DNA of 22,724 bases, taken from NCBI GenBank assembly GCA_045805065.1, contig JBJMMA010000209.1, positions 1 through 22,724 of the forward strand, in the 5' to 3' direction. This DNA is from Bdellovibrionia bacterium. GTDB lineage: Bacteria > Bdellovibrionota > UBA1018. This document shows, in pieces, positions 9,694 to 18,091 of the stretch. A program made the position numbers and the translations under genes. The notes below the pieces were generated by a model that saw only the letters and a list, made by a program, of their open reading frames with translations, did not search any database and was not told the origin of the DNA. How positions within the stretch are numbered: the first letter of the stretch is position 1; every line of letters begins with the position of its first letter.

Positions 9694-10434
9694 TTAAAAC
9701 TCCTCAACCAGATTGACCGAGTTACCGTTCATTGAACGGATATGGATAAGGTTCTCACCTGCTTCGGCCGCGCCCACCGCGACACGCGCTTCAAAGGGAC
9801 GATTGTGTGGCGTGCAAGGCACTCCTGGTTTTTGAGTCGCAAGTGGAAGGATTTCGATGATGCGTGAAGCGCGATGGAGCGTGACAACTCTCTGCAGATC
9901 GATGCAATCGCTTGAGAAGACACCGCTCAGGTGAACCACGGCCTGATTCCCATTTTTTTCAACGATGGCCGACTTGACTGGAGCATAGAGATTTTCGTCA
10001 GGTTGGGCAGTTCTTGTCGTTGCAATGGGAAGCGCACCGCGCGGCGTGTTCTTTCCGTCACCATTCACTTCAAAGATCTGATAGGCGCCAGCCGACATGA
10101 CTCCTAAGTCAACCGTATGAGAAAATGGCGTCATGACTGCAAGACAGAAGCAGCCTGTGTACACATAAGCCATCGCTGAGATGTAGATTCGATGAGAGCT
10201 GTGATCCACTCGAACAGCAGGCTGAACTGTCTTGTAGCAAGTACTTGGCAGCAGCCCAGAGATGACGATCTGTGCGTTGTCGTTATTGTCAAAGCCAGGA
10301 GGGGCAAAGATATAATCAGATTGAATGCTGATCAGCTTGGGAGGCTGGATGGTCTGGGCCGCAGAAGCAGTGGATGGAGCATTTAAAGAAATCGATGCCA
10401 GTACGGTAGACATCATCACGTAATTCAGCTTCAT
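9694..10434 (-). CDS. Secreted two-repeat beta-sandwich-like hypothetical protein
   Basis: Signal peptide; two similar halves (ISGLLPSTC / LSGVFSSDC) each with paired Cys; GAGGGG upstream. Confidence 0.8.
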   Translation of the reverse strand: MKLNYVMMSTVLASISLNAPSTASAAQTIQPPKLISIQSDYIFAPPGFDNNDNAQIVISGLLPSTCYKTVQPAVRVDHSSHRIYISAMAYVYTGCFCLAVMTPFSHTVDLGVMSAGAYQIFEVNGDGKNTPRGALPIATTRTAQPDENLYAPVKSAIVEKNGNQAVVHLSGVFSSDCIDLQRVVTLHRASRIIEILPLATQKPGVPCTPHNRPFEARVAVGAAEAGENLIHIRSMNGNSVNLVEEF

Positions 10435-12948: not shown

Positions 12949-14052
12949 TTATTCTGTCGAGCGCCGAATCCCTAAAGATCTCAGCAAAGAGTTCTCCAGG
13001 CATTCAAGAATGACGTGAGGAGCGACACGAGCCCGAAGCTTCCATCCCGTGGCGACGTATTGAATGATTCGCCTTTCTTCTGGAAAGGTTCCAACCTCAG
13101 GATGAAACTGAGTCGCAAAGCCTGCATTGCCAGGAAAATCGATGGATTTCACGATACGGCCGCGAGCCCCATTCGGCTCGATGTTATAGCCAGTCACTTT
13201 GAAGCGCGGCTGAATCTCCGACGAGTAAGCAGAATCAGAATTCACCGCGGCATGATGCGCATTCGTTGTCTTGAACCGCCGAGCTCCTGCTGCCGCCGCA
13301 AGCTCGCTTCCCTCTTCGGCAATCACTTCCACCGTTGAAAACTTTCCATTGAGGAACCGATGCTCATCTTCCGTCAGGTGCGCGATGTCGTCATGAAGCT
13401 CCGCTCCCTCCATGACTGCTGCGCGCTGAAGGGCGCCGCAGATATAAAAGACGCGACCCTTGCCGTTCTTAAGATATTCACGAAAGTAAGCGATGATTTC
13501 TTGATCCCGCTCCATACTGAGATCTCCCAGCGCCCGCCCGACCTCATTTCGCCCATACATCGCCGGGTGAACATCATCGCCCCCCATGCCGAGCTGGCCA
13601 TCCATCGTGTTCAGCCAAGAACGAAACGCTTTCATGTCTTGATCGCTGAGTACCGTTTCGAGTCCGATGGGGATCGCGTAAAGCCTTGGGCCTTCTTTCT
13701 CGAAAACTCCTGCCGCCATCGCAAGAAAGGTGGGTCCATCAGCCATTTGGGCCGGTCGGTTTAGTACAACAGCAACATTGGGATGCTCTGCGGTAGAATC
13801 AGGTAACTTTTTAAAAGACCCGCCTTGTACCGGAAACCCGAGCTCTTTCGTGCCTTCCATCGATGAATAAACAGGGCTGGATTTTATCGCTTTTGTGTAT
13901 CGGCGGACAAACTGACTGAGCGCCATGTTGCGGATTTTTGGGAGAATGAACTTTACGCCGTTCGCATGAGGCTGCCAAACAACGACGCCTTCCATTTCGG
14001 CGTGCGCAGTGAGCGTGAAGACACAGACGATGAATAAAAATACGAACCTCAT
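12949..14052 (-). CDS. Peptidase C26 / PuuD-like gamma-glutamyl hydrolase with N-terminal signal peptide
   Basis: GGDDVHP, RD...E, ICGALQ (Cys nucleophile), NAHHAAV, QFHPE motifs. Confidence 0.8.
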   Translation of the reverse strand: MRFVFLFIVCVFTLTAHAEMEGVVVWQPHANGVKFILPKIRNMALSQFVRRYTKAIKSSPVYSSMEGTKELGFPVQGGSFKKLPDSTAEHPNVAVVLNRPAQMADGPTFLAMAAGVFEKEGPRLYAIPIGLETVLSDQDMKAFRSWLNTMDGQLGMGGDDVHPAMYGRNEVGRALGDLSMERDQEIIAYFREYLKNGKGRVFYICGALQRAAVMEGAELHDDIAHLTEDEHRFLNGKFSTVEVIAEEGSELAAAAGARRFKTTNAHHAAVNSDSAYSSEIQPRFKVTGYNIEPNGARGRIVKSIDFPGNAGFATQFHPEVGTFPEERRIIQYVATGWKLRARVAPHVILECLENSLLRSLGIRRSTE

Positions 14053-14213
14053 CGATAGCTCTTCGGCGCTTTTTCACGTTTTTGAGAGCTTCTTTGAGGT
14101 TCTCAGAAAATCACATCGCGTCATTCACAAAGATCGCTCAATGACTGGCCGCATTGGCGGAGCGCATCCATAGCTTTTTCTCGCTATGCGTCGGGCCTCG
14201 GATCGGCAAAACT

Positions 14214-14260
14214 ACTCAACATTTTGTGTGTCCAAACTTTTGTACCACTACTAATTGACA
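14214..14260. promoter_or_regulatory. Tandem NrdR boxes
   Basis: ACTCAACATTTTGTGT (14214-14229) fits acaCwAtATaTwGtgt; weaker CCACTACTAATTGACA (14245-14260) lies 31 bp downstream; upstream of nrdA. Confidence 0.65.
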
Positions 14261-14284
14261 GTTCGTCGGGCGGTCGTCTAAATT
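14255..14284 (+). promoter_or_regulatory. Sigma-70 type promoter of nrdAB
   Basis: TTGACA (14255-14260), 18 bp, TAAATT (14279-14284). Confidence 0.6.
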
Positions 14285-14296
14285 TAGAGTTACAAG

Positions 14297-14538
14297 AATT
14301 CGTAGTCGGAAGGCATGAAACTCAGTGAAAATTGAGGCTTTTCGACGCGAGTTTAAGTGGGGACCAGTAGGGAAATGTGGAGACTGCCTCCGGCCTTTCG
14401 ATGAGTCAAGAACGATTCAAAAGATTCGGCTAACGCAGCATTTCAAAGGCCTGTCTGACTTTCCCAAACATTGAGCAGTACCCAGCAGTTTCAGAAGTAC
14501 CCGTAGAAGTTGAAGTTGAGTTGTCCTTATGCCCCCAC
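14297..14538 (+). ncRNA. Structured cis-acting leader RNA upstream of nrdA
   Basis: Long G-U-containing hairpin with GAAA loop (14297-14353) and a nested multi-stem domain (14357-14538), paired by hand. Confidence 0.6.
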
Positions 14539-14543
14539 CCCGT

Positions 14544-14597
14544 GGTGAGTCAGGTGAGTCAGGTGAGTCAGGTGAGTCAGGTGAGTCAGGTGAGTCA
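14544..14597. repeat. Six perfect tandem copies of GGTGAGTCA
   Basis: Read directly; 54 bp. Confidence 0.98.
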
Positions 14598-14708
14598 CGT
14601 AAGGGCAGCAAGTAGTTAAGAGCAGAGCAGAATTAGTGAAGCGAGTTGTAGGGCGTCAAAAGTTTGTCAGAATTTCGAAAGATTTGAGATTCAAGGAGGA
14701 AAGTTAAT

Positions 14709-17051
14709 ATGCAGGTCGTCAAAAGAGATGGCACCAAAGAAATCGTAAAAATTGAAAAGATTCTCCACGCGGTCAACGAAGCGTGCCGTGGGCTTGAGAA
14801 TGTTGAAGCCATCGAAGTCGCCAAGCGCACGATCAATGGCCTGCATGACGGCAGCACCACTCAGGAACTCGATAATCTTTCGATCTCAAACGCAGTCATG
14901 CTCATGGCTGACGAGCCGAACTACTCCAAAGTGGCAGCTCGCATGCTTTCGGAAGGCATCCGCAAAGAAGTCGGCCGCGACGTCGCCTTCCGTGATTATA
15001 TCCGCACGGCTGCTGAGCACGGACTCCTCGCCTCCAACGTCCTTGAGCTCGCTGAACAAGACCTCAACTCGATCGAGTACGCCATCCGCCACGAGCGCGA
15101 TGACCTTTTCGAATACTTCGGCCTTAAGACCGTGGCAGATCGCTACCTCCTTCGTCACCCAAAAACCCGCAAGCTGATTGAGCGTCCACAATGGCTCTAC
15201 ATGCGCGTGGCTTTGGGTCTTTCTCAGAATGTTTCTGAGGCGATCGAATTCTACGACGTCATGAGCCAGTTCTATTACTCGCCAGCGACGCCTACCCTCT
15301 TTAACTCCGGCACTCGCCATCCTCAGATGAGCTCCTGCTACCTTCTGACGGTTGCCGACGACAGCCTGGAAGGCATCTATAAGTCTTTCGCCGATTGCGC
15401 GATGCTCTCGAAGTTCTCCGGCGGCATCGGCATCGACTGGACGCCTGTGCGCGCTTCGGGTTCCTTGATCCGCGGCACGAACGGTCTCAGCAACGGCATC
15501 ATCCCATTCCTGAAAGTTTTCGACTCTTCCGTTCATGCTGTGAACCAGGGTGGTAAGCGCAAAGGCGCCGCAGCCGTCTACCTTGAGACATGGCACGCTG
15601 ATATCGAGACCTTCCTTGAGCTCAGAAACAACACCGGCGCTGAAGAGCGCAGAACGCACAACCTCAACCTCGCTCTCTGGATCTCCGATCTTTTCATGAA
15701 GCGCGTTGAGACTGACTCTCAATGGTCACTCTTCTCACCAAGCGATGTGCCAGAGCTTCTCAATACTTTTGGCGAAGAGTTCGAAGGCCACTACGAGCGC
15801 TATGAGCGCGAAGGCAAGGCTCTCAAGCAAGTCTCCGCTCGCCAACTCTACGCTCGCATGATGCAGACTCTGGCAGAAACCGGCAACGGCTGGATCTGCT
15901 TCAAGGACAAGGCAAATCTTCGTTCTGCGCAAACCGCAGCTCGCGGAAACGTCATTCACAGCTCCAACCTCTGCACCGAGATCTTGGAAGTGACTTCTGC
16001 TGATCAAACGGCAGTCTGTAACTTGGGAAGCCTCAATCTCTCGTCTTTCGTGAACGCGAACGGCCAGTTCGATTATGAGCGCCTCCGCGTTGTGACCAGG
16101 ACCGCTGTGAAGTTCCTCGATCGCGTCATCGATCTGAACTTCTACCCAACTCCGGAATCCCGCGCTTCGAACCAGAAGTGGCGTCCAGTGGGCTTGGGAG
16201 TCATGGGACTTCAAGACGCGCTCTTCAAGCTTCGCATGCCTTTCACGAGCGATCAGGCAAAGATGGTCTCTGCCAAGATTTCTGAGACGATCTATGAAGT
16301 CGCGATCCGCACCAGCATGGAACTTGCGCAAAAGCATGGCTCCTTCCCTGCATTCAAGGATTCGCGCTACGCTGATGGCCAGCTCCAAGTCCAACTCGCT
16401 CAGAAGTATCAAGCCTTGATGCCTGAGACGACGGTGGATTGGGATCGTCTGGCTCAAGAAGTCCGCCAAAACGGCCTTCGCAACAGCTTGCTCATCGCAG
16501 TTGCTCCTACGGCAACGATCGCTTCCATCATGGGAAGCTATGAGAGCATCGAGCCGCAAGTGGCTAACGTGTTCAAGCGCGAAACGCTCAGCGGCGAGTT
16601 CTTGCAAGTGAACCGCTACCTGATCAATGATCTCAAGCGCATCGGTCTCTGGACCCCAGAAATGCGCGCAAAGATCATTTCGGCCGACGGATCGATTCAA
16701 AACATCGAAGAAATCCCATTGGAAATGCGCGATCTTTACAAGACGGCTTGGGAAATCTCCCAAAAAGACCTGATCGACATGGCAGTCATGCGCTCCGCGT
16801 TCATCTGCCAATCGCAGTCGCTCAATCTTTTCATGGAAGATCCAAACATCGGAAAGCTCTCCTCGATGTACATGTACGCCTGGAAGCAAGGTGTGAAGAC
16901 GACCTATTACCTTCGCTCCCGCGCCCGTACCTCCATCAAGAAGACGACCGTGGAAACGTCAACTGCTGCCGCTCCAAAGCCTGAGTACACGGCAACGGAA
17001 GCAGTGACCTGCTCCCTGGAAAATCCGGCTGCTTGCGAAGCCTGCCAATAA
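14709..17051 (+). CDS. nrdA: Class Ia ribonucleotide reductase alpha subunit
   Basis: ATP-cone VVKRDG, PATPTLFNSG, SSCYL, NQGGKRKGA, SNLCTE, APTAT, QSQSLN, KTTYYLR, C-terminal CEAC; AGGAGG SD. Confidence 0.97.
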   Translation: MQVVKRDGTKEIVKIEKILHAVNEACRGLENVEAIEVAKRTINGLHDGSTTQELDNLSISNAVMLMADEPNYSKVAARMLSEGIRKEVGRDVAFRDYIRTAAEHGLLASNVLELAEQDLNSIEYAIRHERDDLFEYFGLKTVADRYLLRHPKTRKLIERPQWLYMRVALGLSQNVSEAIEFYDVMSQFYYSPATPTLFNSGTRHPQMSSCYLLTVADDSLEGIYKSFADCAMLSKFSGGIGIDWTPVRASGSLIRGTNGLSNGIIPFLKVFDSSVHAVNQGGKRKGAAAVYLETWHADIETFLELRNNTGAEERRTHNLNLALWISDLFMKRVETDSQWSLFSPSDVPELLNTFGEEFEGHYERYEREGKALKQVSARQLYARMMQTLAETGNGWICFKDKANLRSAQTAARGNVIHSSNLCTEILEVTSADQTAVCNLGSLNLSSFVNANGQFDYERLRVVTRTAVKFLDRVIDLNFYPTPESRASNQKWRPVGLGVMGLQDALFKLRMPFTSDQAKMVSAKISETIYEVAIRTSMELAQKHGSFPAFKDSRYADGQLQVQLAQKYQALMPETTVDWDRLAQEVRQNGLRNSLLIAVAPTATIASIMGSYESIEPQVANVFKRETLSGEFLQVNRYLINDLKRIGLWTPEMRAKIISADGSIQNIEEIPLEMRDLYKTAWEISQKDLIDMAVMRSAFICQSQSLNLFMEDPNIGKLSSMYMYAWKQGVKTTYYLRSRARTSIKKTTVETSTAAAPKPEYTATEAVTCSLENPAACEACQ

Positions 17052-17083: not shown

Positions 17084-18091
17084 ATGATTCTAAATCAAGA
17101 ACTCGACTTAAATCTCAGACCGATGAAGTACCCGCAGTTCTTCCAGCTCTATAAGGACTCGATCAAGAACATCTGGACCACCGATGAGCTGGATTTCTCT
17201 GTCGATTTCGAACACCTTCGGGACAAGGTCACTCCTCAGGAAGCGCATTTGATTCGTCGCCTGGTGGCGTTCTTCGCAACCGCGGACAACATCGTGGCGC
17301 ACAACCTCGTTCTGAACTTCTACAAGCATGTGAACTCTCCGGAGTTTCGTATGTTCCTGGGTAAGCAGCTTTTCGACGAAATGCTTCATGTCGAAACCTA
17401 TTTGCTCCTGGTCGACAACTACATCCCAGACCCGGACGAGCGCCGCGAAGCTTTCCAGGCCTTTCAGACCATTCCATCCGTGAAGAAGAAGGCTGACTTC
17501 TGCTTCAAGTACATGGACTCGATCGACAAGCTCGATAAGCTCGACACCGATGAGAAGCGCCGTCAGTTCGTTGAGAACCTGATCTGCTTTGCAGGTTGTG
17601 TTGAAGGGCTCTTTTTCTTCGGATCCTTTGCTTACGTCTACTTCCTCCGCAACAAGGGCCTGCTCCCAGGCCTGGCTGCGGCAACGAACTGGGTCTTCCG
17701 CGACGAAAGCATGCACATCGAAGGCGCTATGGCCGTGATCGATGTGATCCGCAAAGAATATCCAGAGATGTTCGACAAGGCGATGGAAGAGCGTGTCTTC
17801 AAGATGATCGAAGAAGCCATCGAAGTTGAGATGAACTTCTGCGAGGACGCTCTCTCCTTCGGAGTGACTGGCCTTTCGGCAACACTGATGCGCCAGTATC
17901 TGGAATATGTGGCAGATCAGCGCCTGACGCAGCTTGGATTCACCCGCCGTTACATGTCGAAGAACCCATTTGCATTCATGGTTCTTCAAGACGTACAGCC
18001 GCTGACGAACTTCTTTGAAAAGCGCGTGACCGAGTACTCCAAGGGCTTTGAGTCCAAAGGCTCTGCGGTCGTCTTCAACGAAGCGTTCTAA
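17084..18091 (+). CDS. nrdB: Class Ia ribonucleotide reductase beta subunit
   Basis: FFATAD (Asp first ligand), EMLHVETY (radical Tyr), VEG, RDESMH, NFFEKRVTEY. Confidence 0.96.
   Translation: MILNQELDLNLRPMKYPQFFQLYKDSIKNIWTTDELDFSVDFEHLRDKVTPQEAHLIRRLVAFFATADNIVAHNLVLNFYKHVNSPEFRMFLGKQLFDEMLHVETYLLLVDNYIPDPDERREAFQAFQTIPSVKKKADFCFKYMDSIDKLDKLDTDEKRRQFVENLICFAGCVEGLFFFGSFAYVYFLRNKGLLPGLAAATNWVFRDESMHIEGAMAVIDVIRKEYPEMFDKAMEERVFKMIEEAIEVEMNFCEDALSFGVTGLSATLMRQYLEYVADQRLTQLGFTRRYMSKNPFAFMVLQDVQPLTNFFEKRVTEYSKGFESKGSAVVFNEAF

Follow-up and report, generated by a model that had tools for sequence, protein, structure and literature searches.

The class Ia ribonucleotide reductase genes of this Bdellovibrionia bacterium lie in a window of 22,724 nt, the whole stretch of DNA analysed here (contig JBJMMA010000209.1). 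The nrdA gene (14709–17051, + strand) encodes the large subunit with an ATP-cone (Pfam Ribonuc_red_lgC, 668 bits; Ribonuc_red_lgN; ATP-cone), and nrdB (17084–18091, + strand) encodes the small subunit (Pfam Ribonuc_red_sm, 271 bits). A Peptidase_C26 gene is divergent from nrdA, with its start at 14052, and the leader element under study sits in the 656-nt divergent intergenic region between the two. The assembly to which the window belongs (G000; 4.2 Mb, 94% complete) also encodes NrdR (TIGR00244, 192.9 bits; cut-off, 124.65) and, alongside NrdAB, a class II, B12-dependent NrdJ (681 bits; cut-off, 400). The nrdJ gene is found on contig C55 (locus L073), directly 3′ of a putative dnaA gene with a spacer of about 110 nt. 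A single congener genome (G001) is available for comparison, and it is the sole match in a search of the leader DNA against 61 relatives, with 76% identity over 14137–14415 and 87% over 14655–14707.

A sigma-70-like promoter is predicted at 14255–14284 (+ strand), where TTGACA and TAAATT are separated by an 18-nt spacer and 10 of 12 positions match the consensus. Three promoter-like sites are found, versus 0.7 expected in shuffled sequences, and the −35 and −10 hexamers are both invariant in the congener. From this promoter, transcription is predicted to start near 14291, which would give an nrdAB leader of about 418 nt. The predicted −10 hexamer ends at 14284, and the hairpin described below begins 12 nt further on, at 14296.

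Two putative NrdR boxes, which we read as such from their likeness to boxes upstream of nrd genes in relatives, are located at about 14214–14229 and 14245–14260, with centers about 31 bp apart. The second site overlaps the −35 hexamer. The segment 14207–14290 is 92% identical to that of the congener, as against 66% at the third codon positions of nrdA, and 14207–14261 is the sole intergenic piece that matches three genomes of another family (82–84% identity), in which it is located upstream of an nrdB-like gene. With an NrdR gene present and tandem conserved boxes recurring in other lineages, the nrdAB leader probably follows a promoter under NrdR control, and because a box-like site overlaps the −35 hexamer, we infer that the main control is probably repression by NrdR at the DNA level. 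A transcription attenuator would call for an intrinsic terminator in the leader, and the number of terminator-like sites in 13900–14800 is zero.

The exact promoter-box pattern occurs at five loci in genome contigs and at one in metagenome contigs. These loci are the congener and nrdB leaders of the other family, with no further copy of the nrdAB leader among them. In that other family (L067, L069–L072, and L003–L005), about 230 nt of highly conserved sequence lie between the shared NrdR-box promoter and the nrdB-like gene. These leaders are too similar to one another to show covariation, and they give chance rows only in Rfam at E up to 10; their predicted consensus fold is strong (−64 kcal/mol, 68 pairs, one compensatory pair).

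The leader and nrdA, whose joint transcription the preliminary description had presupposed, are bridged in contigs from four root-metagenome RNA-library runs, of which small shares were used and which contain relatives at 88–99% identity. In record 1 of the X1 library, a 389-nt contig from a relative of about 90% identity extends from 67 nt before 14366 to 14727 and runs from the leader into nrdA, skipping 36 nt that correspond to four units of a repeat array (see below). Its length puts the start of the contig at about the base of the hairpin. A contig of the X5 library passes from 14418 to 14673 and omits 254 nt, with other letters possibly present at the junction. Such contigs show what is bridged, and neither RNA ends nor expression; the zero depth over 14060–14353 in all four runs carries no weight.

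A hairpin at the predicted 5′ end of the leader

The 5′ stem-loop of the nrdAB mRNA (14296–14354, + strand) is built of three stacked helices of 8, 10, and 6 pairs (24 in all), with a 6-nt bulge on the 5′ side and a GAAA loop. Direct computation on 14294–14357 gives −26.5 kcal/mol for the + strand, versus a mean of −11.4 kcal/mol for shuffled sequences (z −7.03; none of 200 shuffles folds as well); the minimum-free-energy (MFE) structure accounts for 75% of the ensemble. For the − strand of the same segment, the value is −9.1 kcal/mol (z −1.03), which 34 of 200 shuffles match. The hairpin thus folds on the + but not on the − strand, and its G–U pairs mark it as a + strand RNA, in agreement with the preliminary description. 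The complementary segments on which that description was built are all present at their positions, those of the hairpin and those of the region downstream alike.

The hairpin of the congener is also more stable than its shuffles (z −3.91), and its own fold keeps the basal stem as well, interrupted by one bulge. All of the upper 16 pairs are kept, with three compensatory double changes, two one-sided compatible changes, and no broken pair, so that the covariation by which the hairpin was to be judged is present. The sequence of the hairpin is 70% identical between the two genomes, which is near the level of nrdA third codon positions (66%); as the pairs are kept, it is the structure and not the sequence that is conserved. 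In the X1 contig, the last 30 letters of the unaligned 5′ part are a recognizable copy of the hairpin loop and 3′ strand. This copy has three substitutions within the two upper helices, each of which would still allow pairing with the 5′ strand, taken here as unchanged. The comparisons draw on a single congener genome and on parts of a single RNA contig, so that the covariation represents very few independent events.

Sequence conservation peaks at the loop, the 3′ strand, and the stem base, and the bulge differs between the congeners (AUGAAA in the window, UCAAAA in G001). Of 116 genomes of the order, two contain the core pattern of the hairpin (with up to three mismatches), namely the window's own and the congener, once in each. 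The hairpin is specific to one genus.

Stabilizer stem-loops occur at the 5′ termini of bacterial mRNAs, for example in the E. coli ompA leader. The nrdAB hairpin resembles these elements in that it is very stable, would lie a few nucleotides from the predicted 5′ end, and is conserved in structure above sequence; its strand specificity and its maintenance through compensatory change agree with such a role. On balance, we lean towards a genus-specific 5′-terminal stem-loop, probably mRNA-stabilizing, within a fast-evolving, repeat-rich nrdAB leader that follows a probably NrdR-controlled promoter, the nested fold farther downstream being due to chance. According to this reading, transcription would begin at the sigma-70-like promoter near 14291, with NrdR repressing it at the DNA level, and the first 60 nt or so of the nrdAB RNA would fold into the single very stable stem-loop, the structure of which selection would maintain as its sequence drifts. 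The stem-loop is proposed to shield the 5′ end of the mRNA from 5′-end-dependent RNases and thereby to set nrdAB mRNA stability, and it could additionally dock a protein or a small RNA. The region 14355–14654 would serve as a fast-evolving, repeat-rich spacer, and the final 55 nt or so, which are conserved, would carry the ribosome-binding site.

Cobalamin riboswitches and the origin of the hairpin

The comparison with known RNA families called for by the preliminary description gives no family match for the leader. Rfam 15 at gathering thresholds has no match in the whole window and, at E up to 10, nothing in 14286–14500; the sole row at that limit within 14040–14760 is CRISPR-DR24 (20.1 bits, E 0.43), a chance match. 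The cobalamin clan (RF00174, RF01482, and RF01689) has no match at E up to 10 in the leader or in the congener locus (L011). Purine and 2′-deoxyguanosine riboswitches occur before ribonucleotide reductase genes, and their models likewise have no match in the leader at E up to 10. The same holds for the NrdJ RNA motif (RF03034), to which the preliminary description had suggested a relation, provided that it is among the 4227 families searched.

Rfam was also run on relatives (18 loci at gathering thresholds, 5 loci by E-value). Among 28 nrdA leaders of the family (27 and that of G031), four bear cobalamin-riboswitch-like elements, and these belong to four other genera: G031 (RF00174, 32.2 bits, over the cut-off of 31.5), G097 (RF00174, 25.8 bits), G091 (RF01482, 27.1 bits), and G072 (RF01482, 22.4 bits; family riboswitch HMM, 39 bits, E 7e-12). 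The family HMM was built from 31 riboswitch cores of the same bacterial family, and nhmmer with this HMM finds nothing in the nrdA leader of the window or of the congener at E up to 100; weak matches elsewhere in the window, at 9706–9767, show no riboswitch core on inspection. An invariant core that follows P4, and with it the 3′ box, is kept in 29–31 of the family riboswitches; the nrdAB leader has neither, and its best score with a full-core weight matrix is one that 2e-3 of genome positions attain. The statement of the preliminary description that a canonical cobalamin core is lacking here therefore stands, neither Rfam nor the family HMM matching the leader. The leader shares with the four riboswitch-bearing leaders, and with those of Streptomyces, its gene context, its position, and the setting of NrdAB together with NrdJ, and the top of the hairpin weakly resembles the P4 loop region in sequence; it differs from them in being without the B12-binding core, the 3′ box, and any Rfam or family-HMM match, and in a stem register that is off by one nucleotide.

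This partial likeness raises the possibility, which we regard as doubtful, that a cobalamin riboswitch formerly governed nrdAB and, having lost its B12-binding core, persists in remodelled form as the hairpin. The top of the hairpin (GAA, stem, and GUGAAAAU-type loop) would then descend from the P4 arm, an origin that is compatible with a stabilizer role. The occurrence of riboswitch-like elements in 4 of 28 leaders of the family is consistent with such descent, and a precedent for decay in place may be seen in G006 (L012), where about 70–110 nt before the nrdA start codon there is just the 5′ half of a riboswitch (P3–P4), the B12-binding core being missing (HMM positions 13–39, 7.5 bits, E 0.041); this element looks like a riboswitch that is decaying where it stands. 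The hairpin top of the congener contains an 11-nt run identical to the family P4 consensus, with a P4-matrix score that 6.4e-5 of genome positions equal (about 0.02 per leader), and the best P4-matrix match in the leader of the window is at the homologous position, 14318. The score of the window's own match, however, is ordinary and not significant, with 2e-3 of genome positions doing as well, which amounts to about 0.9 per leader; GAAA-type loops are common; and the hairpin stem is, in our reading of the alignments, shifted by one nucleotide relative to P4. The silence of nhmmer (E up to 100) and of Rfam (E up to 10) also counts against descent. In a tree of NrdA (25 rows; G091, G086, and G031 left out as divergent or partial), the genus groups with genera whose leaders show no riboswitch (94/98 support), but with its backbone unresolved the tree neither supports nor refutes a relic. 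Taken together, the sequence comparisons weakly suggest a relic origin of the hairpin.

Independently of its origin, the hairpin might specifically bind a regulatory protein or a small RNA by which nrdAB translation or decay is tuned, and so be more than a passive cap-like structure at the 5′ end; we consider this unlikely. Such a function would fit the pattern of sequence conservation, which is highest in the loop, the 3′ strand, and the stem base. A hint at trans-acting factors comes from a 10-mer, GCAGTACCCA, that is common to the nrdA leaders of four genomes in three genera (G000, G001, G030, and G097). Sites of this type are located in the window at 14475–14484 and 14497–14503 and also in the nrdA leaders of L011, L021, and L026. 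The 10-mer occurs six times in the G000 genome, in which words containing GTACCC are about 3.5-fold under-represented (582 found versus about 2061 expected), and it may be a shared binding site. Against a binding site in the hairpin, the element is confined to a single copy per genome and to a single genus, so that no regulon can be drawn. The stabilizing stem-loop remains the reading that we prefer for the hairpin.

The variable middle of the leader

Downstream of the hairpin, the middle of the leader (14355–14543, + strand) is the region for which the preliminary description had claimed a large nested RNA domain. Its fold does not differ from chance: on the + strand, 14357–14540 has z −0.03, and 101 of 200 shuffles fold as well. 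The inner part (14368–14467) has z −1.64 on the + strand (14 of 200 shuffles) and −1.07 on the − strand (31 of 200), and for the whole span of the described structure, hairpin included (14290–14545), z is −1.38 on the + strand (19 of 200 shuffles) and −0.33 on the − strand. The whole leader (14291–14711, + strand) does fold better than its shuffles (z −2.65; 1 of 100 as good), but its excess of 15.5 kcal/mol is about that of the hairpin (15.1 kcal/mol) and is thus the hairpin's own.

Comparison with the congener leads to the same result. Identity is 57% over 14355–14468, with 21 gap columns, and 32% over 14469–14543, with 38 gap columns, as against 66% at the third codon positions of nrdA; the nested domain changes as fast as synonymous sites or faster, and it does so with insertions and deletions. 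In the congener, the 3′ strands of the proposed helices GTGGGG/CCCCAC and GGCCTTT/AAAGGCC fall in alignment gaps, two of six pairs are broken in each of GGGAAA/TTTCCC and TGAGTC/GATTCA, and one of four pairs is lost in GGAG/CTCC. A one-nucleotide slip would restore GGGAAA/TTTCCC there (GCGAAG/TTTTGC). The covariation score of the whole described structure is reached by 33 of 500 shuffles, for which two sequences are a weak control, and this signal stems from the hairpin. RNAalifold was applied to the full leader pair, and the pairs that it gives beyond the hairpin, where the alignment is unreliable, were not used. The large nested domain, with its chance-level z, its broken or gapped helices, and its fast evolution, is therefore not upheld: the nested fold is a chance fold, and most of what had been described is ordinary. 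Of the proposal that the leader is an orphan regulatory RNA, the + strand hairpin, real and conserved, survives and the nested domain does not, while nothing points to a ligand: conservation of the unpaired bulge, expected of an aptamer, is not seen between the congeners.

The middle region is not uniform. Short patches around 14381–14391, 14404–14416, and 14459–14468 are conserved, and degenerate 10–12-nt repeats containing GTACCC follow them. After these comes a perfect tandem repeat of the 9-nt unit GGTGAGTCA (14544–14597, + strand; 6.0 copies, 100% matches), an array that is unique of its kind in the G000 genome. Its copy number varies, with one unit in the congener and four fewer in the X1 contig of the relative; an essential operon here carries a microsatellite of variable length within its leader. 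A further tandem repeat of the window is located at 138–251 (28-nt unit, 4.1 copies, 95% identity). The three conserved patches, the re-formable GGGAAA/TTTCCC helix, and GCAGTACCCA are not accounted for by the term spacer. A leader peptide was considered and rejected: small open reading frames of the leader are not conserved in the congener, since the indel lengths are not divisible by three and the repeat array is absent there. Conservation returns in the ribosome-binding-site-proximal block (14655–14708, + strand), which has AAGGAGG 7–13 nt before the ATG and is 85–87% identical to that of the congener, with a weak consensus fold (−5.6 kcal/mol).

We regard it as very unlikely that the hairpin and the nested domain together form an orphan riboswitch that senses a ligand, perhaps a corrinoid or a nucleotide, on nrdAB. 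The leader is long and begins with a conserved structure, and NrdAB and NrdJ are both encoded in the genome, so that B12-dependent switching of nrdAB would be useful. In the MFE model, an anti-Shine-Dalgarno-like word, GACUUUCC (14457–14464), would pair with GGAAAGUU (14698–14705) or, alternatively, with GGGAAA at 14370, an arrangement that resembles an expression platform. The conserved patches, and the identity of about 90% that the X1 relative keeps over 14366–14543, would also fit a functional domain. These points are opposed by the z value and evolutionary rate of the domain, by its gap columns and its missing or broken 3′ strands, and by the lack of an Rfam match. The anti-Shine-Dalgarno-like word is itself mutated in the congener (TTTGCC), the hairpin bulge is not conserved, a variable microsatellite is located within the leader, and the X5 contig passes from 14418 to 14673 (possibly with other letters between). 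In addition, the one canonical cobalamin core of G000 is found elsewhere, on contig C74. A related idea, that an ancestral nrdAB cobalamin riboswitch was rebuilt into a minimal hairpin-based sensor for a corrinoid or another metabolite, coupled through alternative pairings among GGGAAA, CUUUCC, and the Shine-Dalgarno sequence, is highly improbable, although if true it would mean that a known riboswitch class had given rise to a new one.

Comparison with other nrd leaders

The closest parallel in architecture is the unexplained long nrdAB leader of Pseudomonas aeruginosa. In this species, nrdAB has a 5′ UTR of 408–411 nt behind NrdR sites, and this UTR changes both the level and the stability of the mRNA (PMC12528414). 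The same study reports no response of the leader to B12, a doubtful likeness to cobalamin riboswitches, and no ligand found (PMC12528414). Strain PAO1 and the present bacterium are alike in having class Ia nrdAB with a leader of similar length (about 410 nt, versus about 418 nt predicted here), a sigma-70 promoter with NrdR sites, a class II NrdJ in addition, and a weak, partial resemblance to cobalamin riboswitches. They differ in that the P. aeruginosa leader lowers mRNA stability, whereas a stabilizer is proposed here, a point that counts against our preferred reading. The comparison is one of leader architecture and not of sequence similarity, the hairpin in the window being confined to one genus.

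Two statements of background made in the preliminary description are found in print. Cobalamin riboswitches on nrdABS of Streptomyces, in hosts that have both NrdAB and NrdJ, are cited in PMC12528414, and the orphan NrdJ RNA is listed as RF03034 in PMC8079986. Like the nrdAB hairpin, the latter motif is a structured orphan RNA that precedes a ribonucleotide reductase gene, but it is reported before nrdJ in Streptomyces and not before nrdA.

The main effect of the present result is to remove a false lead, in that one short, genus-specific 5′ hairpin is real and the nested fold is due to chance. Within one family of predatory-bacteria-like metagenome-assembled genomes, nrdA leaders range from short ones with NrdR boxes only, through those with a cobalamin riboswitch and the half-decayed one of G006, to the long, repeat-rich leader with a hairpin. 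This range makes the family a useful natural series for the gain and loss of riboswitch control over the choice between class Ia and class II enzymes.

The sole canonical cobalamin riboswitch core of G000 is located at about 3869–4045 of contig C74 (− strand; locus L079), with a weight-matrix score of 65 and only 20.4 bits to RF00174. It is upstream of an open reading frame of 599 amino acids (L079 2085–3884, − strand) that has no Pfam family and is followed by a DUF1360 gene; the 599-amino-acid product could be B12-related and of unknown kind. In the family as a whole, RF00174 is matched at E up to 0.01 in 34 of 75 genomes and over its cut-off in 9 of 75, with an almost invariant core. Because most cobalamin riboswitches of the family are below the gathering threshold of RF00174, standard annotation under-calls them.
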